From the IMG/VR virus record IMGVR_UViG_3300045125_000101, positions 74,068 to 138,067 of that record: 64,000 bases of DNA. The stretch is one strand, 5' to 3'. Below the pieces are notes generated by a model. That model was not told the DNA's origin, ran no database searches, and saw only the letters and a list, made by a program, of their open reading frames with translations. The position numbers and the translations under genes are program-made. Of the stretch, positions 21,942-46,483 are shown in pieces (position 1 is the stretch's first letter; each line of letters begins with the position of its first letter). The DNA is from a virus.

Positions 21942-22328
21942 TGGTGGACGTGGCGGAAGTCGAATCCGCGTGCTGTATAATATAACTACAACCATATACA
22001 TGCTTATCTCTTATAATCCGACTAAGTTTGGTAGAGCACCACTTAGAAGTTGAGGACTCTGTATTATCTCGCTGTTGTTACGACCCTCGTCCTCACAACA
22101 GCCAGCAGATGGTCGAGCGTTGTTATTCCATATATCTGCGTCAATAGATAAAACGGGTAGCAACTTAGGCTGCACAGCAACTTCGCTCTTGCGGCTTACG
22201 CTCAAGAACGATGTCTTTGCAAGATTTCTCTTAGCATTTATTTTTTCCAACGGGTATTATACAGAGACATTAGACTCTGTGCATGCGGACTCGTATCTAC
22301 ACTATATAGTAGAATCCAGAACACGCCC
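21942..22328 (-). ncRNA. ssrA: tmRNA
   Basis: 5' GGGCGTGTTCTGGATTC; 3' T-arm plus CACGTCCACCA with G3:U70; resume context AAATAAAT-GCT; tag frame ending GCA GCC TAA. Confidence 0.93.
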
Positions 22329-22337
22329 ATAAAGATA

Positions 22338-22518
22338 GAAAACGTGTAGGGGCTAGGTGTTTGGGCACCAGCACCGGAAATACATTCGGGTATTTCATCC
22401 TATCCCAACAACTTCGGATATTTAAACAAGAATAAGACTTGATACCTACTATGATGTTATGTGAGAATAGTCGCAAGTTTTACAAACAACGACTCTTTTA
22501 ACTACCCTACACGTTTCT
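22338..22518 (-). ncRNA. Unassigned ~180-nt structured RNA
   Basis: Terminal inverted repeat AAACGTGTAGGG/CCCTACACGTTT; no ORF; between a promoter/boxA-like leader and tmRNA. Confidence 0.55.
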
Positions 22519-22652
22519 AAAAGTGATTCAAAGAACAGCATCTATAATTATCTAGATATATCGTCATGTCAATACTTTTTATTTTAGGAAATTTTTATAA
22601 AAAGTATATTCTGGTTGACATATACAATACTTAGAATAATATTTTTATTTTT

Positions 22653-23006
22653 ATGTATAAACTATTTCTTGATGATGTAAGAGAGCCAGAACAAGTGACT
22701 TGGGTGAAACTGCCAGATGGTCCTTGGGAAATCGTGCGTAACTATAATCAGTTTGTTGAGCATATCAATAAGCACGGCATTCCATCATATATTGCTTTTG
22801 ACCACGACCTTGCAGAAGAGCACTATGGTGCTAATCCACGAAGCGAGTTCAAAGAAAAACTGGCTATCAATTGTGCCAAATGGCTCATTGAAAAGTGTAT
22901 GGATGAAGATACGAGCTTTCCACACTATGTTGTTCATAGCATGAACCCTGTTGGAAAAATGAATATCACCAGCCTTATTGAAAACTTTAGAAACACCATC
23001 AAGTGA
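22653..23006 (+). CDS. Cyclic-phosphate-processing receiver-like domain protein
   Basis: LFLDDVREP, IAFDHDL, CAKWL, VHSMNPVG..NI. Confidence 0.75.
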   Translation: MYKLFLDDVREPEQVTWVKLPDGPWEIVRNYNQFVEHINKHGIPSYIAFDHDLAEEHYGANPRSEFKEKLAINCAKWLIEKCMDEDTSFPHYVVHSMNPVGKMNITSLIENFRNTIK

Positions 23007-23668
23007 AGAAACTGACGTTCAAGAGTTCTGAACAAAAGATATGGTTTGTGTCTGACCTTCATGTTGGACACAACAAACCATTTATATTAAACCCTCGCTT
23101 TTACAATAATGTAAATGAAGCAGTTCAGCATACTTTTGATATGTTGTATTCACATATCGGTCCAAATGATATAATCTTCAATCTTGGCGATATGGTGTGC
23201 GGAGCAGGTCAAGCTTCAGAAGAATATGCCAAAAGAGTAGTAAATATACCTTGCAAGGCTCATTACTATATTTGGGGCAATCATAGTGCTGGCATCAAAA
23301 GCTTATATGATAAGGTGCGTGGTGATATTGGACTATTGGCAGATGATATAGATATGTATCCTTTGCCACATCCAAATAGCCCGTTTGTATTTCTTGGGCA
23401 TTATGCAGAAGTGTTTATTGATAGCACGCCAGTTGTATTAACACATTATCCTATTGCTTCTTGGAATCATATGGGTGATGGTGGATATAATATTCACGGT
23501 CATTGTCATAGAAGCATGAAAGAAGATACAACTATAAAACGACTTGATGTTGGATGGGATTGGAAAAAGCGACCAGTTGAATGGAATGAGATTGTGAGAG
23601 AACTTAAATCAAACAAGTTTGAACCAGTCGATCATCACGGAAAAAATGTTGATTCATTTTTTGAATAA
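23003..23668 (+). CDS. Calcineurin-like metallophosphoesterase
   Basis: SDLH, LGD, GNH, HYP, IHGHCH, DVG. Confidence 0.9.
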   Translation: MKKLTFKSSEQKIWFVSDLHVGHNKPFILNPRFYNNVNEAVQHTFDMLYSHIGPNDIIFNLGDMVCGAGQASEEYAKRVVNIPCKAHYYIWGNHSAGIKSLYDKVRGDIGLLADDIDMYPLPHPNSPFVFLGHYAEVFIDSTPVVLTHYPIASWNHMGDGGYNIHGHCHRSMKEDTTIKRLDVGWDWKKRPVEWNEIVRELKSNKFEPVDHHGKNVDSFFE

Positions 23669-23693
23669 AAAAGCCCCGAGTTATCGGGGCTTT
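23668..23693. terminator. Bidirectional intrinsic terminator
   Basis: AAAAAGCCCCGA-GTTA-TCGGGGCTTT between convergent genes. Confidence 0.75.
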
Positions 23694-23697
23694 AATT

Positions 23698-24129
23698 TTA
23701 CAGTGAACTTGGTGTTGGTGTAGGTTCGGGCATTGGCTCGAACGTAGGATATATAGAAGTTTCTGAAGTAGGTGATGGTGTTGGTGTGGTCCAAGGTGGC
23801 GGCAAATAAGCAATAGGAGGATTTATTTTATTATCTATTTCTAAATCTATACTTGCTTGCATCTGTGCCAATTTTTCTTGTCCAATAGATTCTTCTATCC
23901 AATCTGTTACATTTTGTTCCGTAATTTCTGCATATGGTATGAAAGGACGACTACCGGAAACAAATGGTGCAATTTGTTGAGCACCAAATAATTGATGGCT
24001 ATAACTGGCAGAATTCGCTTCACGAGTACCAGTATAATACCAATGTACTATATACACAATATTTTCTAGACCGTCTTGGTGTGCATATGTTTGTAATGTA
24101 GGAAATGTCCAATTATATGTAGTTGCCAT
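23698..24129 (-). CDS. Tail-fibre-associated-type hypothetical protein with Pro/Thr tail
   Basis: YNWT...VYIVHW...FIPYAEITEQNVTDWI...INPP..LPPPW. Confidence 0.55.
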   Translation of the reverse strand: MATTYNWTFPTLQTYAHQDGLENIVYIVHWYYTGTREANSASYSHQLFGAQQIAPFVSGSRPFIPYAEITEQNVTDWIEESIGQEKLAQMQASIDLEIDNKINPPIAYLPPPWTTPTPSPTSETSIYPTFEPMPEPTPTPSSL

Positions 24130-24156
24130 AGCTTTATACTAAACCATTCAGTCCAA

Positions 24157-24466
24157 TTATGCCGACGGTGTTGGTGTTGCGGTCGGAGTTGGAGTTGGCG
24201 TTGGAGTTTCGGACGCTGTTGCGGACGGAGTAGGTGTTGGTGTAGCAGTTTCCGACGGAGTTACGCTAATTGTAGGCGTTACTGATCGGCGTTGGAGTAG
24301 GTGTTCAGTTCTGTTCCGCCCACGCCAGCACCGGTGCAGCGCCCGCTTGTCTTGCTGCCATTTCTTCATTAAAATCGCGAACAATGCGAGCATATTGCTC
24401 CATTAGTTTGTTCAACGGTGCTCTGTCTTTGTTGATTTGATAATAAGTTTGCCAAGGTATTAACAT
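24157..24466 (-). CDS. Small protein with (TP)n repeats (frameshifted)
   Basis: MLIPWQTYY... followed by TPTPS repeats. Confidence 0.45.
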
Positions 24467-24493
24467 AGTATGTATAAATATATAAGTATATAA

Positions 24494-25352
24494 TTAAAAC
24501 TTCATATTTCTAAAGCGTTTTGCGGCTTGGCCTTGAAACTTTCTTATATCAACATTTACGTTTGCTTTCAAGAACTCAATGATTTTCTTCATTACCTGCA
24601 TAAGCATCTTTACGTCTTCTTTAGCATCATCGCCAGCCATCAACTTTGACGCCAAGAGCCTGACCAAGTTTTCCAAGACTTGAACTATAGCTTTTATATT
24701 TTGTTTTTGCAAGCAGACCGTCCAATACAGTTTTTACTTCAGGAACATTTTCAAGTGCCTGCATTGCTGGAATAAAAAGAATCTTGATATATTGACTGTA
24801 TCAAGTACTTCATATCTTTTTCATTGGCGGCAAGCCGTGAAATTTTCGTCTTGCTGCTATCACTTTCATATCAAATGTTGCATTGTGTGCTAATATCACA
24901 ACATTTTGAAAACTGTCCAAAAATTTTTTCAAACTCCAGCAGTGCTTCTTTTTCATCAAGTTTTTCGGCGTTTGGTGTATCATATCCAGTCATCTTTAGT
25001 GCATCTCGCGGATGTAAATCTGGTTTGCCATATTTCTTTTCTCGCCGTGCCATTTCTTTATTAAGATGCTTTGCTTCTGCACTGTTAGGGTCATTCAAAG
25101 CATTGTTTAGTGCAGGTCCAATATTTACTTTTTGCTAAACTCACCAAGTTCATTGAATGTTGAACCATCATATGCCATTGCAGCAATATGTGTTGCTTGA
25201 ACATATGATGTATTTGGCTCAAGATCCCACAGTTTCTGTGTCAAACAATACTATTGTTTTGCCGTCAAACTTCAAAAACTTATCCAGTCATTTCTGGTAT
25301 AGTAAAAGAATATAGTTTGGCTTCAAATAGTAAATCTTTGAGTTTAACTATG
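24494..25352 (-). CDS. DEDDh 3'-5' exonuclease, DnaQ-like (frameshifted)
   Basis: VLFDTETVG (ExoI), ILAHNATFD (ExoII), LDT, DAKEDV (ExoIII); N-terminus VKLKDLLFE. Confidence 0.8.
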
Positions 25353-25610
25353 CTTATAAATATATGGATATAAAAAAGAGGTGGATTTCTCCACCCTCTA
25401 CTGGTTTTCTTTTTTATTGGCAATTATTTTGAGTAATCTTGGTCAAAAATAATGACCAAGCCCAAAATAGCCCAACATACAACGGCTGCTACCATGATAT
25501 GTTTCTCCTATCTCAGAGCCACAGACCCATAGGTTGTGTGGCTGTTATAACTGAGTGTATAATTATACTTCAACTATTATAATAACTCAATATAATAAGT
25601 TATTATTTTT

Positions 25611-26222
25611 TTATCTTACTACTACAGTAGTTGTTTCACTTTTTACCAGACCAGCATTATTAGAAGCATCTACTCTATAACTGCCCGCATTTGCAGATGT
25701 TACATTTGTTAGTTGCAAACTTGAGCGTGTTTGTCCTGCTAATACTACATTGTTTCTATACCATACAAAACGTAATGGTCCCGTAGCAGCAGCATCAACA
25801 TTTGCTTTTAGTGTAATATTATCGCCAACATATGCATTTACTTCTAAACTATATAAATCGCCTTCAAGTATCCAAAAGTTTCTGCTTAGTCGTGTCAGCT
25901 TGAAAACAGAACCCATATTTTTTGTTCTGTATGCTTCATCTGGTTGTAAAATAGTTACGCCATCTTCAGCAACAACTTCCACTGTGCCACTGCTTAGTGT
26001 TGTACCGATTATTTCCGCGCCTACACTAAATACATTAATTCTTTCAAATGGTACAATGAACTTTACTACTTTATTGACTGGCGTTTGTAAGCCAATCAAA
26101 TACCCACTATCTCTGCTTGTTATTTTATATTCAGTAGTAATAGATATTGTTTTTACATCAAGAGCATATGCACTTGAAAACAATCCGAAACATATTGCCA
26201 ACAGTAAAAGTGCCTTTTTCAT
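25611..26222 (-). CDS. Secreted immunoglobulin-domain protein
   Basis: Signal peptide; GPLRFVWYRN...LQLTNVTSANAGSYRVDASNNAG. Confidence 0.8.
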   Translation of the reverse strand: MKKALLLLAICFGLFSSAYALDVKTISITTEYKITSRDSGYLIGLQTPVNKVVKFIVPFERINVFSVGAEIIGTTLSSGTVEVVAEDGVTILQPDEAYRTKNMGSVFKLTRLSRNFWILEGDLYSLEVNAYVGDNITLKANVDAAATGPLRFVWYRNNVVLAGQTRSSLQLTNVTSANAGSYRVDASNNAGLVKSETTTVVVR

Positions 26223-26342
26223 ATACCATATAAATATAATATATATGATATGAAAATGTTATAAACTGTTGATTAGTTTCTAATCATACTGATTTTCACG
26301 CCACTAATATATGGCGTGAAAAATTCAATCGTCAGAATTATA

Positions 26343-26687
26343 TTAACCGCGAATAATCTGAATTTTAACCTGATTAGGAGCAACTGGCGTAACTACAACA
26401 ATGGCGAAGGATCGCTGTCAGCAGTACCCCAATTATTTGTAGCACGCAACTTGTATGTGCCAGCATCTGTTAGAGCAATGGCATTAAATACAAGATTGGC
26501 ACCAGTAGCAACTTGTACATCATTCTTGAACCAAGCAAAAGTAATAGGCGTTGTGCCTTGTGCTTCACCGGCTAAGGTGATTTTTGTGCCAGTATATTCA
26601 GTAGATGATACTGGAGGAGTTTGTGCTGCCATAGTTGAAAACACACCTGCGATTGCCATCAATCGCTATAACTAATAGTTTTTTCAT
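26343..26687 (-). CDS. Secreted single-Ig-domain protein
   Basis: GTTPITFAWFKND...DAGTYKLRATNNWG. Confidence 0.8.
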
Positions 26688-26768
26688 AATTATGATTGTT
26701 TATAACGTTCAAGCATAAATATGATGATATATACGAAAAGAGTATATATAAAAACTAAATGGAAAAAT

Positions 26769-26930
26769 TTACCAGCGATGTATTACACCCGCAACAATAA
26801 AAGCGTTGGTGATGATATATGATAAGATGATTATTGTGCGAATAAGTGCAACTTTATCTGCTTCACAATCATTTGTATCTGCTTTTTCACCAAGCGATTT
26901 TGCCCAAATTCTCCAGAATTTTTTAAACAT
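26769..26930 (-). CDS. Small membrane protein
   Basis: WRIWAKSLGEKA...ADKVALIRT...NAFIVAGVIHRW. Confidence 0.6.
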   Translation of the reverse strand: MFKKFWRIWAKSLGEKADTNDCEADKVALIRTIIILSYIITNAFIVAGVIHRW

Positions 26931-26934
26931 AAAT

Positions 26935-27020
26935 TGGTAGTCGAGAGGGGACTTGAACCCCCAATCCCTCACGGGCAGAAGTTTTTAAGACTTCTCTGTA
27001 TACGATTCCAGCACTCGACC
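26935..27020 (-). tRNA. trnL: tRNA-Leu(TAA)
   Basis: Cloverleaf, loop CTTAAAA, long variable arm, CCA. Confidence 0.9.
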
Positions 27021-27029
27021 ATATAAAAT

Positions 27030-27106
27030 TGGTGGTCGCGAAGGGACTTGAACTCCTGACACCATCGATGTAAACGATGTGCTCTAACCAACTGAGCTAC
27101 GCGACC
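27030..27106 (-). tRNA. trnV: tRNA-Val(TAC)
   Basis: CATCG-TTTACAT-CGATG, CCA. Confidence 0.92.
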
Positions 27107-27111
27107 AAATA

Positions 27112-27387
27112 TTAAATTTTTCCAAATTGTTTTTTCTGCCAATATCCTACAGGTTTTGTTTGTATTTCGTATGACTTGCACCACTTTCTAACAGCGTTGC
27201 CAGATACTCCATACTGTTTTCCTATGCTTTCTATTGGAACAGATTCTATTAGATTTGTCAAGTGTTCTTTTGATGGGCGTTCTACTTTACGACAATATTG
27301 TTTTGGCTTAGTTCTCCAGTTTGGGTCTTTGGGAATTTTTGGAGTTTTAGGAGCCCGTTCAATTTCCACTTTATCCAAATAAGACAA
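27112..27387 (-). CDS. Helix-turn-helix protein (endonuclease-associated type)
   Basis: RPSKEHL...IGKQYGVSGNAVRKWCK. Confidence 0.6.
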   Translation of the reverse strand: MSYLDKVEIERAPKTPKIPKDPNWRTKPKQYCRKVERPSKEHLTNLIESVPIESIGKQYGVSGNAVRKWCKSYEIQTKPVGYWQKKQFGKI

Positions 27388-27392
27388 TAACT

Positions 27393-27991
27393 TTATTCCA
27401 TTTTTTCTGCAACCTTTCTGATTCTATTGTAATATCTAGAACCTTTATGGGTACTTACCGCTTTTGCTATATCTGTTATGCAATTGTATTTTTTACACGC
27501 CTCCAATATTTGCTCGTCGCCAACTTTCATATTTTTTCTATGAGAAGTTTCTGTTTGTGAGTGGCAGTTAGGACACAAAAACCGGAGATTTTCTTTCTAT
27601 TATCTCTCCAATTTCCATCTTTGTGGTCTACTTCCAATGTTATTGGAAGATTATTATAAGAATTTATATTACATTTTTCGCACTTATATTCTCGTCCAAT
27701 TTCTCGCAATGCTCTTGTTAAGATATTTCCGTGAACTCTTTTATCTCGCGTCGAGAACATCAATATTTCATTGGCACATTTTCTTGTATTTTCTACTCTT
27801 CTTTTAGCTCCTTCCAACATTCCTGCTACACTTGACTGGAAATGAGAAGTATCAATACCATATTCTTTTATTTTTCGGCTGATGTGATTGTGTCCTCCAC
27901 CCGATATTGGGCAATTTACAATACGCATTACTTCTGTAACCGATTTCGCTTTTTTTGCGGCATCTTCTAATATTTGTTTGGTGTATTTCAT
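27393..27991 (-). CDS. HNH homing endonuclease (frameshifted)
   Basis: YKCEKC, LEVDHKDGNWRDNR, LCPNCHSQT. Confidence 0.88.
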
Positions 27992-28046
27992 ATACAATAA
28001 ATAGTATACACAACACAAAAAACATTGCTCGTTTACTACTTTTTAA

Positions 28047-28137
28047 TGGTAGCATCGGTGGGGCTCGAACCCACACGGGATATTTCACCCATCGGTTTTT
28101 GAGACCGACCTGTTTAACCAATTACAAGCACGATGCC
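28047..28137 (-). tRNA. trnL: tRNA-Leu(CAA)
   Basis: TCGGT-CTCAAAA-ACCGA, long variable arm, CCA. Confidence 0.9.
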
Positions 28138-28152
28138 ATATCTAACAAAAAT

Positions 28153-28241
28153 TGGTGGGCGAGACAGGACTTGAACCTGCACGCTTGTATAATAAGCACG
28201 AGCTTCTAAGACTCGAATGTCTGCCATTCCATCACTCGCCC
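28153..28241 (-). tRNA. trnL: tRNA-Leu(TAG)
   Basis: CGAGT-CTTAGAA-GCTCG, long variable arm, CCA. Confidence 0.92.
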
Positions 28242-28244
28242 AAT

Positions 28245-28287
28245 TCAAAGAACACCTATACTCTACACACTTTATTTATTTCGTCAA
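28245..28287 (-). promoter_or_regulatory. Sigma70-type promoter plus boxA-like leader
   Basis: TTGACG-N16-TAGAGT then GTTCTTTGA just before tRNA-Leu. Confidence 0.6.
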
Positions 28288-28606
28288 GAACTTTCTGCGA
28301 TAAACTGCATATCCTAATCCAATCATTCCTGCAAACAATGCATATGTAGATGGTTCAGGCACAGCAGGACCGCAATAATCTTTATCATATCCATCTTTGC
28401 CACCATAATATGGACTCTTATATTTATCATCATCATCTTCATCATCCCAATCATAACTGCTGCTCATAGTAATCATCTGCACAGGGTCATTATATGACGA
28501 CGTAAATGTGCTGATAATATCATAGTTTGCCAAAATCAACAATAGTATCACTGGCAAAAATGCTGCCAACAAACATAGCAAAGATAAACAATAGTTTCTT
28601 ATTCAT
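28276..28606 (-). CDS. PEP-CTERM sorting-domain protein
   Basis: C-terminal AVPEPSTYALFAGMIGLGYAVYRRK; hydrophobic N-terminus. Confidence 0.85.
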
Positions 28607-28704
28607 ATGAGATAACTATACACTTTTTTATGCTTTGTTCAAGCACAAAAACTATAATAAGTAAAACAACGTATTATATCTTATAATCGTCATTTTCTAT
28701 GCTT

Positions 28705-29122
28705 TTATATATTTTCGCTTATACGATTTACCCAATAATCTAAATCATATGACTCATCTACTTTAGTATGATATTCAGTAGGTTCTGTAAATAACTTTGT
28801 TGTATCACTAAAATCTCGCACAGGTTTTCTTGCCATAAATACTATATAAGCATCATTTGCTCCAAATGCTTGTCTTGCTGCTGCTGTTGGACATACAAAA
28901 TCTGCAATTGCATATACACCTGTTCTATTTACAATATCACATAATATGCCCATTCTTTTAGCGTGTTCTATTCTATCTGATATATCAAATGTAAGGTCTT
29001 TATTTATTTTAGACCTTATTTCATCAGCGTTGAAATGAACCGCAGATAGTTTCTTTGCTAATGCAGTAGATAATGTTGTTTTGCTCAGAACCGGGTAATC
29101 CCATAACAAGTATCTTTTTCAT
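28705..29122 (-). CDS. cysC: Adenylyl-sulfate kinase-like protein
   Basis: ILVMGLPGS.KTTL, NADEIR, DLTFDISDRIEHAKRMG, IADFVCPT. Confidence 0.75.
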
Positions 29123-29127
29123 AAAAG

Positions 29128-29212
29128 TGGTGCTAGATGGGTTACGATCCCACGAAGGATTTCTCCAAGAGCTTATGAAACTCCTGTGCTTTGTCCACTT
29201 GCATACTCTAGC
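29128..29212 (-). tRNA. tRNA with CAT anticodon (Met or Ile2) and long variable arm
   Basis: GGAGT-TTCATAA-GCTCT; variable hairpin GGA-GAAA-TCC; CCA. Confidence 0.75.
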
Positions 29213-29400: not shown

Positions 29401-30199
29401 ATACAAAAAAATTGCCGCCGCTAAATAAAGAAGAGTTGGAGAAATACATATCAGACGGATTGTCCTCATACGAAATGTCTGAAATAGTTGGAAGAGGGCA
29501 AACATCTGTTCGTTGGTGGCTCAAGAAGTATGGATTAAAAACAAATCATATTGTTGGCAAATCCTAGAGGCATAATAAAGAATACAATAAACAAAAAATA
29601 CGGAGAAAAAAACATAATAAATTGGAGTGAGTTTCAAGTGTACTATGATGGTGGAAAAACCGTAAAAGAGACGATAAAAATATTCAATGCTTCTCGTAAG
29701 ATGGTAGAAGATGCAAGAAAAATAAACTATTCACACCAAGAACACCATCGGAAACATTGCGTATGACAGGCCGAGCTTTCAAAAACATTCAGATGAGACA
29801 AAGCAACTACTATCGGAAAAACGAAAAGCATATTTGAATAAAACTGGCAACGCTGCATGGAAAACTCACGAAAAATTTAAATCACAACCGTGCGAATGGT
29901 TAAAGTCGGAACTATTAAAAATAAATATTCAATTTGAACCAGAACACGAGCCTTTGAGGCATATTGGTCGTTATTTTGCGGTAGATATTGCGTTTATATC
30001 CAAAAAATTTATAATAGAAATAAACGGAAGACAGCATTATAATTCAGACGGGTCTTTGGCTCCATATTATCAAAATCGCCACAACCTTATTACATCATAT
30101 GGTTGGGAAATATGGAAATTCCATATCACGAAACAAAATCACCATATTTTTTGGAGAAGGTTTTTGAATGTATTAAAACAAAAAATGGTCCTCCCGTAG
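29397..30199 (+). CDS. DUF559/Vsr-like homing-type endonuclease with HTH and NUMOD-like segments (frameshifted)
   Basis: GQTSVRWWLKKYGLKT; HSDETKQLLS; YFAVDIAF...IIEINGRQHY...GWEI. Confidence 0.7.
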
Positions 30200-30289
30200 G
30201 ACTCGAACCTACAGCCGTACTCACATCTAGAGTCGCCCTTTCGGGTGTCGGGTATAAACCGAATGCTCTGCCAATTGAGCTACGAGAGG
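30186..30289 (-). tRNA. trnI: tRNA-Ile(TAT) with greatly expanded variable region
   Basis: Canonical D arm, TCGG-TTTATAC-CCGA, T arm GTAGG-TTCGAGT-CCTAC, CCA; 104 nt. Confidence 0.8.
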
Positions 30290-30440
30290 AATAAAATGTT
30301 AAAGAACGAGGAAGGCACATATTGCGGTTCGTGTCCTTCGAGGAAAACCTACCCGTTACCTCCGTGCAGTCTCACTGCACCCTTATCTTGCAATACATAA
30401 TGGCAGATTTTTATCCAAAGTCAATAACTATTTCGACTTT

Positions 30441-36916: not shown

Positions 36917-36924
36917 ATTTTATT

Positions 36925-37642
36925 AGTTATATCCTACCACCTTGACTCATAATCCAGTTTTGTGCAACTTTATTTCGTGGTAGTACTTTTGCCCACGCAT
37001 TTATTTTCCATACAATCCATCCGCAATAACTTTTGCACTATCTGCTCTACTTTCGCTATTATCAACAATAATCATGTTTTTCGCACCAAACAATCCTTGA
37101 AAATGACCTATATTACTTTGAACTGCTTGCCACATTTTTTCTACTTGGCTTGGCGGCAAAGTGCGTGCTCGCTTTGCGTTTCTGGCTTGAGCAGTTTCTA
37201 AATCTGTATTTACCAATACCATCATTGTTTCATAACCAAGTTCTTTAAGCCAAGAATTTGATTTTGAAATTTTATCATAATCCTTACCTGTACCATCTAT
37301 TACAATACCAATTCTGCCATCAACCCAGTCTCCTTCACGTTTATATGTCAACTCTTTGGCTCTATCTCGTATCTTTTGACCTTTTGGAGAGTATATTGCA
37401 TCCGGTGTCAATGGTAGTCCAGCTTGACTCAATAAGTGTTCATATACAATATCAGAGTTCAATACTTTGAACCCCATACCTTCTAATCCAATCTGCTTTA
37501 CAATATAACTTTTTCCAGAGCTGGCCCGCCTGCCATAGAATACTGCTTTGAAAATAATAGGGTCATCTACACCTTCATTTACGCCAAGGTTTTCTAGCAT
37601 TAGCCTTTTATGCTTTTCAAATGTAGATTGCAATATATCCAT
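36925..37642 (-). CDS. P-loop kinase/ATPase (Zeta-toxin/AAA_33-like)
   Basis: FKAVF...SGKSY, NSD..YE, IVIDGTG, VNTDLETAQARNAKRAR. Confidence 0.75.
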
Positions 37643-39092: not shown

Positions 39093-39213
39093 ATACAATA
39101 AATATATGACAGGTTCAAATTTATGCTAAAAATATTGAACTATTTACTATATAAAAATGCCCAGATACACAAAGCATCTGGGCAAGAGATAAACGTTTAT
39201 ATGTGTTTATGCT

Positions 39214-39449
39214 TCACTTACTCTCAACAAATCGATAGAGTTTTGATGCAATTTCCATTAGCTTCCTCTACGCGATTGTCGGGTGCAGCAGTTAATGTAT
39301 TCTTGTTGGTTTTTTCAGCTTCATAACGCAACGCTTCATTGGCGAAGTGATAACGATGGTCAGCCATATCAAGTGCCTTGTTAAGCACTTCCCAACGGAT
39401 TTCATAACCGCTCTTACCCGTCTTTTTGTGTATTTGTATCTTTACTCAT
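39214..39449 (-). CDS. Small conserved phage hypothetical protein (frameshifted)
   Basis: KSGYEIRWEVL..A...IASKLYRFVE. Confidence 0.5.
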
Positions 39450-39537
39450 TGTGTGTGTATGAAATGATTTACATTATTGTATCTCATTTCGCACATCATA
39501 ATAATTAAAATACTATTTGTCAAGAATATAAAAAAGA

Positions 39538-39848
39538 TTTGTCGTTTATTTCGTATGCGACTCCACGAAGGGACTGCCCTAATTGTGTGTGAAAAATTTG
39601 GGAGGGCTAATGATTACCTCCATTCTAACTCTGATATTTCAGTTATTCAGTCAGATGACACCGTCGCATCATAATGGTTCGCAATGTCATATGTTATTCT
39701 ACATACAAACCATACCTCTGAGTAGCTTCGGTTGGCCAACCTAGGCTTCAGCATAGTACCTTACTTACTAATCAGAGCAGAAACTTACTCATATTCTTCA
39801 TATGAATAATGCGTTAGTCCCATTTGATAAGACTTTTTCCGCCACAAA
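39538..39848 (-). ncRNA. Unassigned ~310-nt structured RNA
   Basis: ORF-poor, multiple hairpins, 3' H-type pseudoknot; downstream of tRNA-Ala and a boxA-like motif. Confidence 0.5.
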
Positions 39849-39871
39849 AGATGTTTATTAAAGAACGAAAT

Positions 39872-39947
39872 TGGTGGACCCAACAGGGTTCGAACCTGCG
39901 ACCTTCTGCTTGCAAAGCAGCTTCTCTACCAACTGAGATATGAGCCC
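39872..39947 (-). tRNA. trnA: tRNA-Ala(TGC)
   Basis: CTGCT-TTGCA-AGCAG region, G3:U70, CCA. Confidence 0.95.
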
Positions 39948-40002
39948 ATTAATTAAAGAACAAAGATAACTATGTACTAGTTTTATGAAATGTCAAGAAA
40001 AT

Positions 40003-40077
40003 TGGTGGTCCTTCACGGTTACGCTCCGTGGTCTTTCGATTATCAGTCGAAGGCTCTAACTATTGAGCTAAAGGACC
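40003..40077 (-). tRNA. trnI: tRNA-Ile(GAT)
   Basis: TTCGA-CTGATAA-TCGAA, CCA. Confidence 0.9.
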
Positions 40078-40267
40078 GTAAAAATCACTAAAATCATTTT
40101 CTATACCCTCATAATACTTGTCTTGTTTATATATCTGTAAAATACGAGCGTGTTCATAATCACTTGTAGGTATCCATCTAGGCGGTTCGCCTTTTAGGAA
40201 TATTACTGTATATGATTTATTTTTATCAACTGCTCTTCTTATCATTAGCATAAAGATAAATATATAG

Positions 40268-40341
40268 TGGCTGTTCCTCCTAGACTCGAACTAGGACAAG
40301 CGCAGTCAAAGTGCGCTGTGCTGCCATTACACCAAGGAACA
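40268..40341 (-). tRNA. trnQ: tRNA-Gln(TTG)
   Basis: GCGCA-CTTTGAC-TGCGC, CCA. Confidence 0.92.
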
Positions 40342-40431
40342 ATACAGATAATTATCATTCTGTCAATAAATATATCCATCGGCATTTCAGTGCCCAAATG
40401 CACATTGTAGCCGATGATTTGGTTAATAAAT

Positions 40432-40509
40432 TGGTAGCCCCATTCGGGTCACGATCACGGGCTCTCCTGCTTGAAAGGCAGGCGAACTCAACCATTATTC
40501 TATAGGGCC
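40432..40509 (-). tRNA. trnE: tRNA-Glu(TTC)
   Basis: CCTGC-CTTTCAA-GCAGG, CCA; T arm imperfect. Confidence 0.8.
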
Positions 40510-40547
40510 ATAAAATTGAGATAATGTCGCCATATTGCGACTCAAAA

Positions 40548-40624
40548 TGGCGGGACTGGTGAGATTCGAACTCACACTAAAACACGTTCGTAGCGTGTGT
40601 GACTTTCCAGTTGCCGACAGTCCC
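40548..40624 (-). tRNA. trnR: tRNA-Arg(ACG)
   Basis: ACACG-CTACGAA-CGTGT, CCA. Confidence 0.88.
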
Positions 40625-40689
40625 GTAAAATTGCGAAGGTAGCTAGTATCTCAACCAAGCTATTAAGTCGTTGCGACACCTTCTTAAAT

Positions 40690-40776
40690 TGGTGGTGACA
40701 GTTGGACTCGAACCAACGAAGGCCGGTAGGCCGAATGATTTACAGTCATTTGCACTTGCCGCTATGCGATGCCACC
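40690..40776 (-). tRNA. trnY: tRNA-Tyr(GTA)
   Basis: AATGA-CTGTAAA-TCATT, long variable arm, CCA. Confidence 0.92.
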
Positions 40777-40787
40777 ATTTAAAATAA

Positions 40788-40863
40788 TGCGGGGTGCATC
40801 GGATTTGCACCGACTCTCTATAGATTGACAATCTATCGCTTGTGCTTCATAAGCTCCCACCCC
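40788..40863 (-). tRNA. trnD: tRNA-Asp(GTC)
   Basis: ATAGA-TTGTCAA-TCTAT; no intact CCA in this read. Confidence 0.78.
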
Positions 40864-41024
40864 ATATAAATTTATTAGCAAGATGTGAATTCACTTATCA
40901 CCATTTAGCGTGTTTGCACGTCCATACTGACTTTAACAGTCTCTTCTTGCTACAAAACGATATTTTTACTAGTATTGTCGTAAAAAATTACTTAATTATC
41001 AATCCGTTGTATATATATGTATAT

Positions 41025-41661
41025 ATGAAATATGAAAAAGTATTTGTAATAGGATTCAATAAAACTGCTAGTACCAGTTTTCATAAATTATTTGTACATT
41101 TAGGTCTTCCATCTGTGCATACTCGAGAATGGAAATATAAAAAATATACATGTTTTTCTGATGGGAAAAGGCATACACTTGACGGACCTGATAATTTTAA
41201 ATCTTTGGAACAAAGATTCCCAAATGCATTGTTTATACTAAATACTCGACCATTATCTCAATGGTTATTTAGTAGAGCTAAACATGGTATAATATACCCA
41301 CGCAAATGGTCTTATCCAGCAACCCACGAAAAATTTATAAAATGGATAAATTCCAGAAATTCTTTTCACGATGAAGTATTGAGTTTTTTTTTCAAAAATC
41401 TCCAAACAAACTTCTTGTGATAAATATAAATAATAAAAATTGGGAATTGATGGTGGCAAATGAATTGGGATTTTGTAATCACGAACAATTATTTCATGTC
41501 AACTCAATACCAGAAAGTACCATTCCAGAATTCACGCTATTAGAAATATAAAAATATTTTAACAGAAACTTTCAAAATGTTAAATATGAATGAGAATTGA
41601 GCAAAACCGTTTGGACATAGATTCGGAATTAGTAAAATGTTACAAACACAATTTGTATTAA
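41025..41661 (+). CDS. Sulfotransferase-family protein (frameshifted)
   Basis: KVFVIGFNKTASTS (5'-PSB loop), FPNALFILNTRPLSQWLFSR. Confidence 0.75.
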
Positions 41662-41663
41662 AT

Positions 41664-41751
41664 TGATGCTCCGAGAGGGACTCGCACCCCCGATGACATT
41701 TTACTGCGGCGGCTTAAATGCCAAACCTTTCGCCGCTGAGAGAATCGGAGC
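41664..41751 (-). tRNA. tRNA-like gene, probably tRNA-Lys(TTT) with long variable arm
   Basis: GCTCCGA/TCGGAGC acceptor and T arm; anticodon loop ATTTAA is one base short. Confidence 0.55.
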
Positions 41752-41756
41752 ATAAA

Positions 41757-41981
41757 TGAATTACCAGTGTGGGGTTCGCACCCACCATACACTATTTTTT
41801 CCGTGATGGTCTGAACATATCGTGCACTCTGTTCTTGGTTTATCAACCGCAGCTATTTCACGCTTGGCAGTTGATATCCGACTTATCGGTCGTCGTACCT
41901 ATCACTTGGTCTCACAGAAGCGACCCGCAAGATTGCTGATGTGTATGCTACGACTGCTAAGATTCTGCATCTTACTGGTAA
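41757..41981 (-). ncRNA. ~225-nt RNA with tRNA-like acceptor and T arms
   Basis: TTACCAGT/ACTGGTAA, GTGGG-TGCGAAC-CCCAC and multiple internal helices. Confidence 0.65.
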
Positions 41982-41983
41982 AG

Positions 41984-42059
41984 TGGCTGTCCCAGCACGG
42001 TTCGAACGTGCGACCTTGAAGTTAACAGCTTCTTGCTCTGCCGACTGAGCTATGGGACA
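41984..42059 (-). tRNA. trnN: tRNA-Asn(GTT)
   Basis: GAAG-CTGTTAA-CTTC, CCA. Confidence 0.93.
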
Positions 42060-42068
42060 ATAATACCG

Positions 42069-42488
42069 TCATCTTGTTCTGCATGACAGTTTGAACACAC
42101 CAATATACATTTTTCCGCTTCTTCTTTTAAGCGAGCAAATGATTTTGTTCGTTCCACTAATTTGAAAATCTTTGTTGTTTGGATCTTTATGGTGGAATTG
42201 TAATGCTCTCTGGCATTTATCGTAGCCACAGCAAACGCATTTTCCGCCCATATGTTCTATCAACTTTTGCTTGGTACGTCTTCTCCATTCTGTGACTGCT
42301 TTCACTTTTTGATCTGCCCTAACCACATCTTCCATTTTTCTATTTTTTATTATTAAATATTTTGCTAAAGTGTGCCTGTGCCAGCCAAACTTTTTTCCTA
42401 CTTCGGAAACAGGAACATCATTTTCATCATAAAATTTTTGCATTTCTGCTATTTGGTCTGCCGTTGGTTTTATATTCTTTGTGTACAT
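42069..42488 (-). CDS. HNH homing endonuclease
   Basis: GGKCVCCGYDKCQRALQFHHKDP...LVCSNCH. Confidence 0.85.
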   Translation of the reverse strand: MYTKNIKPTADQIAEMQKFYDENDVPVSEVGKKFGWHRHTLAKYLIIKNRKMEDVVRADQKVKAVTEWRRRTKQKLIEHMGGKCVCCGYDKCQRALQFHHKDPNNKDFQISGTNKIICSLKRRSGKMYIGVFKLSCRTR

Positions 42489-42544
42489 AATATTAACTTT
42501 CTTTGTTAATAAATATGTAGCAGCAAGACAAAACGGTGATAAAT

Positions 42545-42633
42545 TGTAGAGAGTGTTTAGCCAAGAGTGATTATATTAATCTACTATGAACCTATCCCAA
42601 TAATTTGGATAGCTGTGCCCTTAACTCTCTGTA
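42545..42633 (-). ncRNA. Structured RNA motif, copy 1
   Basis: AGAGAGT/ACTCTCT closing stem; paralogue at 44093-44177. Confidence 0.6.
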
Positions 42634-42638
42634 AAAAA

Positions 42639-42713
42639 TGGCATAGGCGACAGGAATCGAACCTGTATAAGGCAGTTTTGGAGACTGCTGCACTACCAAT
42701 ATACCACGCCTAT
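42639..42713 (-). tRNA. trnW: tRNA-Trp(CCA)
   Basis: GCAGT-CTCCAAA-ACTGC, CCA. Confidence 0.9.
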
Positions 42714-42717
42714 ATTA

Positions 42718-43899
42718 GATTAGTTTGTTCAAACCATCACCAACAATGGTCTTATGGTCGAATGCGAGAGTTGGTAATTGTTTGATGTCAAACCATCTTT
42801 AGCTTCCTCTGCATCATCTTGACCTGATACTTTTTTATTTGCATACTCTTCTGGAAGAATTATACCAAAAGCATATGATTTTGACCAAGCATCTTTTGTA
42901 TCTCTGGGATCTCTGCCTGCTCCTTCATATACACCGATTGGAACAACCATACTTTCCAAATTAGCGATATACAATCCAGTTTCTTCTTGAAGTTCTCGTA
43001 TAGCAGCTTGTTTCGGAGTTTCTCTACCAGGTTTCACTCTTCTCCACGTTTTGCGTTTGTGTCTATAAATCCACCAGGCAACGCCCATTTACCACCTTCA
43101 ACTCCTGCTTTTCTTTTGATGAGTAGAATTTTGTATCCTTCGGCGTCTTCCTTCAGAACAATGTTGTCTACCGTTGGGTTTGGACCTTTGTATCTATAAT
43201 TGGACTGAGAAGCAAATTGACTTCCATCATAATCCTTATTCAAAATCTTTTCTACAAAGGTATATGAACTTGGAACAAGAAATATAGCTTGAGAAGGTTG
43301 AAGTAGATGTACAGTACCTGTTCTATCCAACACAACATCATATCCCATCTGTCTTAAAAGAGTATTGAAATATATCATTGATTTCTTAGCTGGACCAGCG
43401 CTACCTTCCACCTTGTTGCTGATATAATTCATCAAACCATAAACATATTTTCCATCACTGTCTATTGGGTATAGCATATCCTTAGAATTGTCTTCAAACT
43501 CTTTGAGAAGATCATCAAACGATGAACCAAACTTCTTTTCGTATAAAGCTTTAAGTTTATTCAAATCAGATTGTTTTGAATTATAATTCTCAAGATCTAT
43601 TACTTTGTTTGTGTTTTAACTTTAAAACATTTACAAAAGGTCTGTCTTTTTCGAACAAGTAATTTTTTTCTTGAATATCATCAAATACGTCACTCAGCTT
43701 GTAGGCGTACAATCCAACCGGAGTTGAATATGGAGTCTTGGGATTGATTCCCACTTTTTCAATGGACGTGGAATGTTATGAAATAATTTTCATCATCTTT
43801 GTATTTTCTCAAGGACTCAATTGCAGAAACCTTTGGATTCATTTCTGGATTCTTTCTCGCTTCTTGTATCTTGTATAATAAGTCTTTGAGTTTAATCAT
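42718..43899 (-). CDS. ADP-ribosyltransferase-like domain fused to Nudix hydrolase (frameshifted)
   Basis: MIKLKDLL; GINP...TPVGLYAY; GYDVVLD...QPSQAIFL; C-terminal TVDNIV..ILLIKR..WALPGGF..ETPKQAAIRELQEETGL..GRDPR. Confidence 0.75.
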
Positions 43900-43930
43900 A
43901 TCTTATAAATATGAACGTATCCAAGTAAAA

Positions 43931-44005
43931 TGGTGGGAATGGACGGTTATGCTCCGTCTCACACAGATTCACAATCTGTTATGCTTCTATTACATCACAA
44001 TCCCC
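43931..44005 (-). tRNA. trnH: tRNA-His(GTG)
   Basis: ACAGA-TTGTGAA-TCTGT, CCA. Confidence 0.85.
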
Positions 44006-44010
44006 GTAAA

Positions 44011-44086
44011 TGGCTGTCCCAGCACGGTTCGAACGTGCGACCTTGAAATTAACAGTTTCTTGCTCTGCCAACTGAGCTATGGGACA
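44011..44086 (-). tRNA. trnN: tRNA-Asn(GTT), second copy
   Basis: GAAA-CTGTTAA-TTTC; near-identical to 41984-42059. Confidence 0.93.
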
Positions 44087-44092
44087 ATAAAT

Positions 44093-44177
44093 TGTAGAGA
44101 GTGTTTGGTCAAGAGTGCTTATTACGCTACATGAACCCATTGCGATATTCCAATGGCTGTACCCTTTACTCTCTGTA
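44093..44177 (-). ncRNA. Structured RNA motif, copy 2
   Basis: Same junction sequences as 42545-42633 with different but complementary stems. Confidence 0.6.
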
Positions 44178-44320
44178 AATTTTTATTTAAGATACTTTTT
44201 GGCTAATGGCGTTAATTCCATTCCAGCATCTTGCAGTTGTTTGACTGCTTCTTTTCTGGTTCTTATCTTGTTTTTAGTCTACCTTCTAGCGTTGGTAATT
44301 TGATTTTATTTTTCATATAT

Positions 44321-44397
44321 TGGTGGAGGCTGATAGGAGTTGCACTATCTTCTCGCCGTCTTCAGCGGCACGTGAGCACTAGCTTCACCAAACCTCC
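44321..44397 (-). tRNA. trnF: tRNA-Phe(GAA)
   Basis: TGCCG-CTGAAGA-CGGCG, CCA. Confidence 0.82.
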
Positions 44398-44406
44398 GTA
44401 AATTAA

Positions 44407-44569
44407 TCCCGCTCATGAGCTTTACGAGGCTCACTAAATTTGTTACCTGACCAATGTGGCGTTTCGTTCCTCATTGGGCTATTAGCTCACGATAACATTA
44501 CTTAATGAGTGCCCATTGAAACATAAGGCATCTTCAACCTATCCATGAGGTCCGGTTCGTGCTTCGGGA
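44407..44569 (-). ncRNA. Unassigned ~165-nt structured RNA
   Basis: TCCCG/CGGGA ends, TCGTGAGCT/AGCTCATGA, CCAATG/CATTGG; fills the spacer between tRNA-Thr and tRNA-Phe. Confidence 0.45.
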
Positions 44570-44571
44570 AA

Positions 44572-44646
44572 TGGAGCCGTGTAAGGGACATGCACCCTTC
44601 TATATAGTTTACAAGACTATCACATCGCTATCTATGTTTACACGGC
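44572..44646 (-). tRNA. trnT: tRNA-Thr(TGT)
   Basis: ATAGT-CTTGTAA-ACTAT, CCA. Confidence 0.85.
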
Positions 44647-44652
44647 GTAAAT

Positions 44653-44727
44653 TGGTGCCCCATGACGAGAATCGAACTGTCGCATGAACCTTGGCAAGAT
44701 TCCATCCTACCACTAAATGAATGAGGC
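44653..44727 (-). tRNA. trnG: tRNA-Gly(GCC)
   Basis: GAATC-TTGCCAA-GGTTC, CCA. Confidence 0.85.
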
Positions 44728-44732
44728 GAAAT

Positions 44733-44809
44733 TGGAGCCGTGTAGCAGAATCGAACTGCTCTCCATTGTTTTGCAGACAAGTGATCACCAACCAGCTATC
44801 TCACACGGC
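44733..44809 (-). tRNA. trnC: tRNA-Cys(GCA)
   Basis: TTGT-CTGCAAA-ACAA, U73, CCA. Confidence 0.85.
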
Positions 44810-44815
44810 ATTAAA

Positions 44816-44907
44816 TGGTGGACCGTATAGGAATCAAACCTATCGCCATTCCTCTATACACAATTTTCAATCATTGTTGCGAATGTTTACATCAGCTAAT
44901 ACGACCC
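44816..44907 (-). ncRNA. tRNA-like RNA with Ala identity (G3:U70, A73) and no D stem
   Basis: GGGTCGT/ACGGTCC-A-CCA; T arm ATAGG-TTTGATT-CCTAT. Confidence 0.6.
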
Positions 44908-44912
44908 AAAAA

Positions 44913-44999
44913 TGGTGGTGCCGATTGGACTCGAACCAATGTAGACCGTTAGGTCAGGAGATTTACAGTCTCCCGCGATTGCCGCTACGCGACGACACC
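44913..44999 (-). tRNA. trnY: tRNA-Tyr(GTA), second copy
   Basis: GGAGA-CTGTAAA-TCTCC, CCA. Confidence 0.92.
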
Positions 45000-45004
45000 G
45001 AAAT

Positions 45005-45080
45005 TGGTGCGGTAGACAGGGTTCGAACCTGCGACAACCAGCTTGGAAGGATGGCGCTCTACCAACTGAGCTACTACCGC
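45005..45080 (-). tRNA. trnG: tRNA-Gly(TCC)
   Basis: Loop CTTCCAA, canonical D and T arms, CCA. Confidence 0.93.
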
Positions 45081-45087
45081 AAAAATG

Positions 45088-45750
45088 TTAGTATTTACTT
45101 TTTATACGCTTGGTCGATTTACGTGGCTTTTTCTTTACCACGCATTCGTCCTTACACCTGAATAATGCCACACCCAGTATAATTGTCAAGGCCGCAGTGA
45201 AATATACTACTTTTTCATATGCTGCTAATTCATCCAACGCTATTTTTCTTGATTGTTCAGCAGCGTGAAACTTATTATCTAAAACTTTGTTTATAATTTC
45301 TGTCATAGGATCTATTACCCTATATAGTTCGCCGTTATATAACTGAGCGTGTATTTCTTTTACATCTCCTCGCACACTTAGTATTTGAACTTTCTTTATA
45401 TATTCTGCTACTTTTTGTGCACGAATAAATAATTCTTTATCATCTAAAGTTTCTACACCATTTACTGTTTTCTTATATGCTTCAACCAATGAATGCTGAG
45501 TTTGTAAAGTTTTTGATAATGTATTTCTAAACTGGTCTATTGTAATAAGGTCGTGAGATACTTTGACTTGGCTATCTACAAGTGTAAGACCATATGAATC
45601 AAACAATGGGCTAAGTGTATTTGTTACAACTTCAAACTCTTTATATGAATGGTCAACCTTTGAACGCAACATAGAACTTGTATATAGTCCTTTAGATACA
45701 AAGATAGACACAATAAACAACATTACGATAATGGCGTGTTTTGATTTCAT
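45088..45750 (-). CDS. Two-TM membrane protein with helical periplasmic domain
   Basis: N- and C-terminal TM segments flanking a ~150-aa helical region. Confidence 0.6.
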   Translation of the reverse strand: MKSKHAIIVMLFIVSIFVSKGLYTSSMLRSKVDHSYKEFEVVTNTLSPLFDSYGLTLVDSQVKVSHDLITIDQFRNTLSKTLQTQHSLVEAYKKTVNGVETLDDKELFIRAQKVAEYIKKVQILSVRGDVKEIHAQLYNGELYRVIDPMTEIINKVLDNKFHAAEQSRKIALDELAAYEKVVYFTAALTIILGVALFRCKDECVVKKKPRKSTKRIKSKY

Positions 45751-46066
45751 CTTTTTTAATAAACTTTTCTGGGTTTTTAGATACTTGCTTGGCTAATCTT
45801 GCCAATCCTTGTAGCAATTCTGGTGATATTACACCAACTACACCATATATTATTGCTTTGGTAAGGCTAGATATATCTGTTTGCTCTAGCATAAACCAAG
45901 CTATGATAGAGCATATAGAAGCAGCAAGTATCTTTTTGAATTGCTCAACCCACGGCATTTTGCTTGCGTCTGTGAGCAATCTAGCAACCATACCAGCAGC
46001 ACCTACAAGTGCTACTAGCCAACCGCCAGTTAAAAATTCTTTTATAAGGTCTTTGTCATCTGCCAT
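45730..46066 (-). CDS. Holin-like membrane protein
   Basis: Three short TM helices (GGWLVALVGAAGMVARLL...IIYGVVGVISPE) and a basic tail. Confidence 0.6.
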
Positions 46067-46129
46067 ATATTCGTATATCTATAGATATAATATATATACT
46101 AAAAAACTATATAAAAATATTTTACAATT

Positions 46130-46420
46130 AGCAAATACGTAATACTACGCATTTCCCATTCCGAACCGCGTGGAGGTTTGTAAAAACTCGGAACACAACA
46201 AAAGAATATAACTCAACGGGGTTGATTACCCATCTTATTGTTATACTCTTTTATTTATAAGAACAATATATTCACTTCGGCCTCACAACAAGTTATCCCT
46301 AACACTATCCTGTCCTTAACTTGTTGGTATTGATTCCCACAAAACGGTCCTCTCTATTATGAGTCCGGTGGCTATTTTAACGCTTATAGGTGCGCTTTTA
46401 CCTATCTAACCTAACGAAAT
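46130..46420 (-). ncRNA. Unassigned multi-hairpin RNA or leader (~290 nt)
   Basis: 10-bp and 13-bp helices; directly downstream of a promoter and boxA-like motif. Confidence 0.45.
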
Positions 46421-46429
46421 TGATTTTTT

Positions 46430-46483
46430 ATAAAGAACTATAACTAACTTTGCTTACTCTACACACTTTTTATACTTTGTCAA
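46430..46483 (-). promoter_or_regulatory. Sigma70-type promoter plus boxA-like motif
   Basis: TTGACA-N16-TAGAGT then GTTCTTTA. Confidence 0.65.

Follow-up and report, generated by a model that had tools for sequence, protein, structure and literature searches.

That stable RNAs other than tRNAs can lie within a phage tRNA cluster has a precedent about 50 years old, rnaC and rnaD (species 1 and 2) of T4. The function of both is still unknown (PMC9697503). Three further kinds of RNA serve as points of comparison: the theta ribozymes of gut phages, which cleave at most 5 nt from the 3' end of a tRNA (PMC10879173); the manA motif (RF01745), an orphan candidate riboswitch that T4-like cyanophages share with marine bacteria (Weinberg et al. 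2010, PMC2864571); and the YrlA Y RNAs and the tRNA-like domain of transfer-messenger RNA (tmRNA). Here we examine a 64,000-nt stretch of viral DNA (hereafter, the window), which makes up the last 64 kb of the 138-kb IMG/VR virus record IMGVR_UViG_3300045125_000101 (completeness estimate, 64%). Besides tRNAs and a tmRNA, the tRNA array found in the window contains about ten small structured RNAs that belong to at least eight unrelated families.

The finding is genuine, and the set is heterogeneous: known classes partly account for it, and the rest are RNA families that are new but of a familiar, still unexplained type. The interpretation that we favor, to which we assign a probability of roughly 60%, is that promoter-driven tRNA operons of a jumbo phage are interleaved with about ten structured RNAs that would be excised by tRNA-type processing and would accumulate as stable RNAs. 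A preliminary description of this region had envisaged one undescribed system. That view is not sustained, as the set is heterogeneous, its units come and go among close relatives, and T4 rnaC and rnaD precede it.

The nine spacers of that description, named E1 to E9, are located in Table 1. T4 rnaC and rnaD are the closest analogues of E3, E4, E5/E6, E8 and a further unit, E10. As in T4, the units lie within a tRNA cluster and are encoded on the strand of the tRNAs, a homing endonuclease accompanies the array (internal to the cluster in T4), and T-arm or closing-helix modules are present. The likeness extends to architecture: like E4, rnaC combines a large internal insertion with a canonical T arm close to its 3' end. 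However, the stable RNAs of T4 are only two, rnaD and rnaC, and both stand at the 3' end of the cluster, whereas the units described here number about ten, belong to several families, are scattered, and are in several cases variably present. No similarity of any element to rnaC or rnaD was detected by nhmmer, and blastn yielded short chance words only.

Structured RNAs within the tRNA array

None of the nine spacers contains a credible open reading frame (ORF), as had been proposed; the longest stop-free runs on the RNA strand span 15-47 codons. None is called a tRNA either, be it by ARAGORN (default, relaxed, intron and organellar settings) or by RF00005 at E values up to 10 in small windows. 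Their reported richness in GC exists but is small (0.36-0.46 compared with 0.365 in the window), and is clear only in E4 and E7. When folding energies were compared with those of dinucleotide shuffles (z in Table 1), the signal was strong for E1 and E4, clear for E5, E3, the E9 leader and E6, and weak for E7 and E2; E8 folded no better than shuffles. In E4 and E7, folding is better on the (-) strand than on the (+) strand. A terminal stem closes E1, E3, E4, E5/E6 and E8, in keeping with what had been described for most spacers, but closure is weaker in E2, E7 and E9.

Among homologues, compensatory changes back E1, E2, E3, E4, E5/E6 and E9. The idea that the spacers encode structured RNAs in the orientation of the tRNAs is borne out, and most of these RNAs are conserved. 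The count of at least eight unassigned RNAs requires a correction: part of E9 is a ribozyme resembling that of hepatitis delta virus (HDV), a known class, and E2 resembles manA; the other elements have no Rfam family. A motif apparently shared by E1, E2, E7 and E9 (CCGAAG) was dropped, as pairwise alignments among elements score no better than shuffles.

The relatives are about 15 related contigs from IMG/VR and metagenomes, gathered via a neighboring protein and exact-word scans. One of them, G008, is a 297-kb record scored as 100% complete, and is 68-79% identical to the window over homologous RNA regions. L028 is 80% identical in the E9 region, and L038 and L039 are metagenome contigs with related arrays. 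GenBank phages gave no DNA match to the array, to E7, or to E1 plus the tmRNA. The arrays are mosaic: E6 is precisely absent in three close relatives, and a unit at 40625-40689 is precisely absent in L028; the E7/E8 block is missing in the closest relatives, and E2 and E4 are missing from G008. Another related contig, L034, packs 29 tRNAs into 14.7 kb (1-14681), with many spacers of 100-290 nt.

The boundaries of the units resemble those of the tRNAs. Nearly every tRNA of the array encodes its CCA; (A)UUU stands directly 3' of the CCA in 21 of 28 tRNA/tmRNA units, and AUUUAY or UUUUAY is found 5' of most units. This A/U-rich junction, (A)UUU(A)Y, also delimits the extra units: CCA-UUUUU and UUUAAU enclose E8, CCA-UUUC and AUUUAC enclose E7, UUUAC and AUUUAU enclose both E5 and E6, and CCA-CUUU and AUUUAU enclose E4. 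Sigma-70-like promoters are located upstream of the E9 leader (46483-46456), of tRNA-Gln, of tRNA-Ala and of the genes that follow E2, and the spacers are located within promoter-to-terminator units. Same strand, shared junctions and promoter-terminator framing therefore support, from anatomy only, the proposal that spacers and tRNAs are co-transcribed and would follow a common route of tRNA-type processing.

Table 1. Coordinates and properties of the RNA features of the array (helix, closing helix in bp; z, folding energy relative to dinucleotide shuffles).
Feature	Spacer first delimited	Position	Strand	Helix	z	Description
E1	22338-22518	22338-22518	(-)	11+	-3.9	Folded RNA between promoter and tmRNA
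E2	39538-39848	39585-39864	(-)		-1.7	RNA of ~270 nt after tRNA-Ala, sub-threshold manA-like (RF01745, 24.5 bits), ending in terminator-like hairpins
E3	40876-40952	40876-40952	(-)	8	-2.8	Cloverleaf shape, middle arm ending in a 4-nt loop; three sequences, 22 pairs, 3 compensatory
E4	41757-41981	41757-41981	(-)	8	-3.6	RNA of 225 nt; seven homologues, 68 pairs, 4 compensatory, few breaks
E5	42545-42633	42545-42633	(-)	7	-3.0	Y-shaped, paralogous to E6; an inserted gene (42069-42488) stands between it and its tRNA-Asn
E6	44093-44177	44093-44177	(-)	7	-2.3	Y-shaped RNA (P1 7 bp, P2 6 bp) directly upstream of tRNA-Asn
E7	44407-44569	44407-44569	(-)		-2.0 (-), -1.5 (+)	GC-richer unit of 163 nt between tRNA-Thr and tRNA-Phe; singleton
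E8	44816-44907	44816-44907	(-)	7	-1.0	tRNA-like: acceptor stem, T arm, CAUUC/GAAUG helix enclosing a hairpin; homologues in two metagenome contigs
E9 leader	46130-46420 (all of E9)	46256-46430	(-)		-2.6	Multi-helix RNA with invariant junction and loop sequences
E9 pre-ribozyme hairpin		46197-46255	(-)			Outer and inner stems covary; internal loop (CAAUAAGAU / GUUGAG) nearly invariant
E9 HDV-like ribozyme		46120-46194	(-)			3' third of E9; predicted cut 5' of G46194; putative catalytic C46131 in J4/2 (GCUAA)
Two-hairpin unit		40625-40689	(-)		-1.4	Closed unit between tRNA-Tyr and tRNA-Arg; missing from the preliminary description
Promoter		46456-46483	(-)			Sigma-70-like (TTGACA, 16 nt, TAGAGT); start of the first tRNA transcription unit; also in relatives
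tmRNA		21942-22328	(-)			Phage tmRNA; RF00023, 83.8 bits
Degenerate tRNA-Lys(UUU)		41665-41752	(-)			Copy of a class-II-like tRNA; anticodon loop altered; 3' end UCA, not CCA

tRNA-like, Y-shaped and other units

Four units (E3, E4, E8 and E10) are tRNA-like in their predicted folds but lack an anticodon loop. The fold of E4 consists of an acceptor-like stem of 8 bp, a hairpin in the D position and a T arm (5 bp, 7-nt loop), with extra helices of about 150 nt enclosed. A 10-bp internal helix is rebuilt by two double changes. Scanning with 18-mers of E4 gave mostly chance matches and added homologues in L010 and L028. E3 is found upstream of tRNA-Asp in the window and in L028, and upstream of tRNA-Lys in G008.

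In the homologues of E8, T arm, acceptor stem and CAUUC/GAAUG helix are all retained, while an unrelated hairpin takes the place of the enclosed one; one homologue adds a hairpin in the D position. We considered E8 as an alanine-accepting domain of the tmRNA type. However, G3:U70 and CCA become A3-U70 and CUA in L038, and their lack of conservation therefore counts against an alanine-accepting role. At a relaxed threshold, ARAGORN calls a permuted tmRNA at this place in L038.

E5 and E6 form a family of five distinct sequences, three of them homologues from relatives. P1 and P2 are paired in 100% of cases, with compensatory changes; P2 exists in four versions, and the covariation score was reached by none of 500 shuffles. 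The closing helix of this family resembles that of the tRNA-like units. A third helix, AAGGG/CUCUU, is broken in two lineages and is not supported. A model of E5/E6 (R1) was run over 265 kb of related DNA and found no more copies. Relatives in which the protein of the flanking gene is 86% identical have an E6 that is 96-100% identical. As to the gene inserted between E5 and tRNA-Asn (42069-42488, (-) strand), it has no Pfam match; it had earlier been called HNH.

The combination of tRNA-like acceptor and T-arm modules with non-tRNA helices is shared with the YrlA Y RNAs and with the tRNA-like domain of tmRNA. A Y RNA reading was nevertheless rejected: no Ro60/TROVE gene was found in the phage, in five relatives or in the complete 297-kb relative, and there is no Rfam match.

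Promoter, E1 and tmRNA follow one another in the window, and likewise in G008. Folded together with the G008 homologue, which is 74% identical, E1 forms 54 pairs, 7 of them compensatory; in close relatives, E1 is 97% identical, too alike to inform on covariation. We interpret E1 as a probable leader fused to the phage tmRNA. The phage and its complete relative G008 lack a gene for SmpB.

The identity of E2 is less straightforward. In relatives, it starts 4-5 nt past tRNA-Ala. Folding with homologues predicts 82 pairs with 4 compensatory changes; by hand, three double changes were counted in one hairpin and two in a second. In a small-window Rfam scan, E2 matched the full model of RF01745 with 24.5 bits, and two homologues with 34.8 and 26.1 bits, all below the threshold of 55.2; none of 14 control genomes matched. 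The features that align with manA are the 5' module, in which GAA..AA and UAA flank a hairpin, the 3' hairpin with its GGUA..CA.UA..CC loop, and the pseudoknot strands. The fold supported by covariation is in agreement with the 5' module and with the 3' hairpin, the central junction remains unaligned, and one helix of the manA model competes with a covarying long-range helix of E2. Unlike manA, E2 has about 120 extra nt in its center and scores 24.5-34.8 bits against 55.2; it also follows a tRNA and precedes terminator-like hairpins and a strong promoter, instead of lying in an obvious 5' untranslated region. E2 is possibly a divergent relative of manA and not a member of the family.

E7 stands apart as a singleton. 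No homologue was found by a 17-mer scan of IMG/VR or among GenBank phages, and there is no Rfam match. Spacers upstream of tRNA-Phe in L038 (7041-7256, (+) strand) and L039 (2922-3139, (-) strand) were considered as homologues and discarded as a different RNA. These spacers, of about 215 nt, are common to both contigs and unrelated to E7; they show a long-range helix of 11 bp, a covarying hairpin and a T-arm-like GGGUUCGAAGUCC module.

The leader and HDV-like ribozyme of the first operon, and neighboring genes

The promoter that heads the first tRNA transcription unit is preceded by a terminator and followed by E9, which has three parts. The leader, aligned with its 68%-identical homologue of G008, folds (alifold) into 44 pairs, of which 12 have compensatory changes. 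The hairpin that follows was considered as an intrinsic terminator; this was judged unlikely from the sequence, given the A/U-rich base of its stem and, in L034, a poor U tract.

The 3' third of E9 adopts an HDV-like fold. It matches the full model of RF02682 with 28.8 bits (threshold 44), and RF01787 (drz-agam-1) with 26.8 bits (threshold 37); homologues in five relatives score 25-33 bits with RF02682, and 0 of 14 control genomes match. In the Rfam alignment, a 7-bp P1 that starts with G.U is followed by a CCUCC-A-CG-C-GG core, a P4 hairpin and GCUAA in J4/2; P3 is also given by this alignment. The 3' strand pairs with the J1/2 region to form P2, and the result is a nested double pseudoknot. 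P1 and the core are kept in six variants. P2 occurs as UUUUACAA/UUGUAAAA, UCAUACA/UGUAUGA or UACACA/UGUGUA, and P4 as one of three unrelated hairpins; all of them pair, and P1, P2 and P4 covary over five lineages. J4/2 reads GCUAA, GCAAA or GCGAA, with an invariant C, and G1 pairs as G.U or G-C. In G008, two pairs of P1 show compensatory changes and the core is CCUCC-U-CG-U-GG. Helices were listed by a script, as the MAFFT alignment misplaces P2 and P4. We take the fold as established and its activity as presumed, namely self-scission that would leave a 2',3'-cyclic phosphate and a 5'-OH.

The nested double pseudoknot, the G1 at the cleavage site, the CCUCC-N-CG-N-GG core and the C in J4/2 are common to drz-Fpra-1 (RF02682) and the theta ribozymes (PMC10879173). 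As with the latter, the genome is of the Caudoviricetes type and encodes an RNA ligase of the DRB0094 type, a gene found by Kienbeck et al. to be enriched in phages that carry theta ribozymes (PMC10879173). The position is different, however. Theta ribozymes cut next to the 3' end of a tRNA, while the E9 ribozyme follows a conserved hairpin, and no tRNA was found upstream of 46194 by ARAGORN or Rfam, relaxed settings included. Most spacers do lie near a tRNA, as had been stated, but the ribozyme of E9 is not adjacent to one. Instead, and unlike theta ribozymes (PMC10879173), it stands at the head of an entire tRNA operon, some 55 nt away from the ORF that follows, and its P4 measures 6-11 bp. 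A small ORF, holin-like in the window, comes after the ribozyme in every relative, and tRNA-Gly(UCC), the first tRNA of the array, comes next.

The RNA ligase of the phage is split into an adenylyltransferase part (PF09414) and an OB-fold part (PHA02142), with a gene between them (48152-48832 and 49898-50482, (-) strand). A kinase resembling AAA_33 and zeta toxin is encoded within the tRNA region (37001-37642, (-) strand), and may be a polynucleotide kinase partner of the ligase. No RtcB gene was found in the phage or in its complete relative. Other genes in or around the array include a NUMOD3 homing endonuclease that adjoins it (47230-47778, (-) strand) and a sulfotransferase-like ORF on the strand opposite to the array (40842-41420, (+) strand). 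Elsewhere in the window, the family B DNA polymerase is found in several separate ORF pieces (54412-56619, (-) strand). For the clamp loader, identity does not exceed 47% with its counterparts in an uncultured 484-kb phage, Microcystis phage Mel-JY01, Pelagibacter phage HTVC008M and other T4-type myoviruses; the genome is therefore that of an uncultured jumbo phage, a distant relative of T4.

Every RNA gene of the array is on the (-) strand. ARAGORN detects 20 tRNAs under default settings; its relaxed mode, together with an Rfam scan run without filters, adds Gly-GCC, Phe-GAA, His-GUG, Asp-GUC and Thr-UGU (44.2 bits). Two more are a long Ile-like tRNA (30187-30290) and the degenerate, class-II-like one of 88 nt. 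The total of about 27 tRNAs plus the tmRNA agrees well with the 26 readable tRNAs and tmRNA counted before. T loops that start with UGC, not UUC, are found in tRNAs Asp, Phe and Thr (40789-40863, 44321-44397 and 44572-44646, (-) strand); ARAGORN misses all three by default, and Rfam finds those for Thr and Phe in a small-window search only. The tRNA-Lys(UUU) of relatives is intact, with 87-89 nt, a long variable arm (class II shape) and a T loop of the UGCGAGU type (L028, 1117-1205; L034, 5470-5556). Between tRNA-Arg and tRNA-Glu, a hairpin GUCGC-AAUAUG-GCGAC within UUGAG/CUCAA (40510-40547, (-) strand) is conserved in L028.

Possible roles of the units

Our favored interpretation can be laid out as a sequence of steps. 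The acceptor/T minihelix of tRNA is recognized by RNase P. Most units are closed by a helix of 7-8 bp, and in E4 and E8 a T-arm hairpin beside the helix recreates such a minihelix. The host machinery for tRNA maturation would thus cut the units from the precursor, by RNase P and 3' trimming, and the excised units would accumulate as stable RNAs in the manner of T4 rnaC and rnaD. In the first operon, transcription would produce the conserved leader and hairpin, and the HDV-like ribozyme would then remove the leader, leaving a 5'-OH on the downstream RNA that carries the holin-like gene and the tRNA array. Once released, the units might bind particular factors, of the host or of the phage, that take part in tRNA or translation metabolism. 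We propose this trans-acting role with low confidence; specific partners seem preferable to passive spacing because loops and junctions are invariant while stems covary. The patchy distribution of the units suggests that their roles are accessory.

Several observations weigh against this interpretation. E7 has no homologue and a z of only -2.0, and the z of E8 is -1.0. The ribozyme of E9 scores below every Rfam threshold. Relatives are few and mostly close, so that covariation counts are small and reflect shared ancestry in part. Furthermore, individual units are dispensable, as some relatives do without E6, others without the 40625-40689 unit, E2, E4 or the E7/E8 block, a pattern that neutral or cis-only elements would also fit.

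A first alternative is indeed that the units act in cis only, as punctuation or insulators that prevent misfolding of neighboring tRNAs or as entry sites for RNase P or RNase E, and are functionless once excised. The small size of the units, their closure by a stem and their limits at a processing junction are easily accommodated by this explanation, as are the loss of units among close relatives that keep the adjacent tRNA and the fact that E3 is not tied to one tRNA. A spacer, however, would have no need for the invariant single-stranded loops and junctions and the covarying stems seen in the E9 leader, in E5/E6 and in the third hairpin of E3. E4, E2 and E1, with 180-270 nt and multiple helices, far exceed the requirements of punctuation, and most adjacent tRNAs of the array manage without such units. 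On balance, we regard a purely cis-acting role as unlikely.

A second alternative, put forward in the preliminary description, is that the units constitute a toolkit for anti-defense or translation control, for instance tRNA-mimic decoys for host anticodon nucleases or tRNA-binding enzymes. Several units do mimic the acceptor/T-arm half of a tRNA without an anticodon loop, and patchiness is typical of accessory counter-defense genes. The non-canonical tRNAs, the DRB0094-type RNA ligase and the AAA_33/zeta-like kinase of the phage likewise suggest an investment in tRNA conflict. On the other hand, no partner protein was identified, Ro60/TROVE, RtcB and SmpB genes are absent from the phage and from the complete relative, and neither the alanine identity nor the CCA end of E8 is conserved. 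We consider the toolkit improbable as an explanation of the set. A related and more speculative possibility, to which we give equally little credit, is that E3, E4, E8, the Y-shaped E5/E6 and the tmRNA-linked E1 are mimics of tRNA or tmRNA that, once excised as tRNAs are, titrate host tRNA-targeting defense nucleases, tRNA-modifying enzymes or ribosome-rescue factors, in an operon switched on via a leader whose HDV-like ribozyme is controlled by the conserved domain upstream of it.

Lastly, the idea that the units are decaying tRNA genes or neutral leftovers with residual RNA-like structure finds an echo in the degenerate tRNA-Lys copy at 41665-41752, intact in relatives, and in the failure of E7 and E8 to fold better than many shuffles, but it is very hard to reconcile with helices maintained by compensatory changes in six families, with an E6 better conserved than the protein encoded beside it (96-100% versus 86%), and with the retention of E1, E3, E6 and E9 in a phage only 68-79% identical over these regions.

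The stable RNAs that we favor would extend a theme known from T4, namely that phage tRNA clusters contain stable RNAs, to at least six families supported by covariation. Relatives with or without single units offer natural presence/absence controls, and one of these relatives has a complete genome. Also new is the position of the HDV-like ribozyme, which heads a tRNA operon and follows a conserved leader, and the locus presents a phage tmRNA with a conserved, folded RNA fused on its upstream side. If one of these RNAs proved to be a tRNA-mimic decoy or to regulate the ribozyme, RNA-based counter-defense and operon control in jumbo phages would become open to direct testing.

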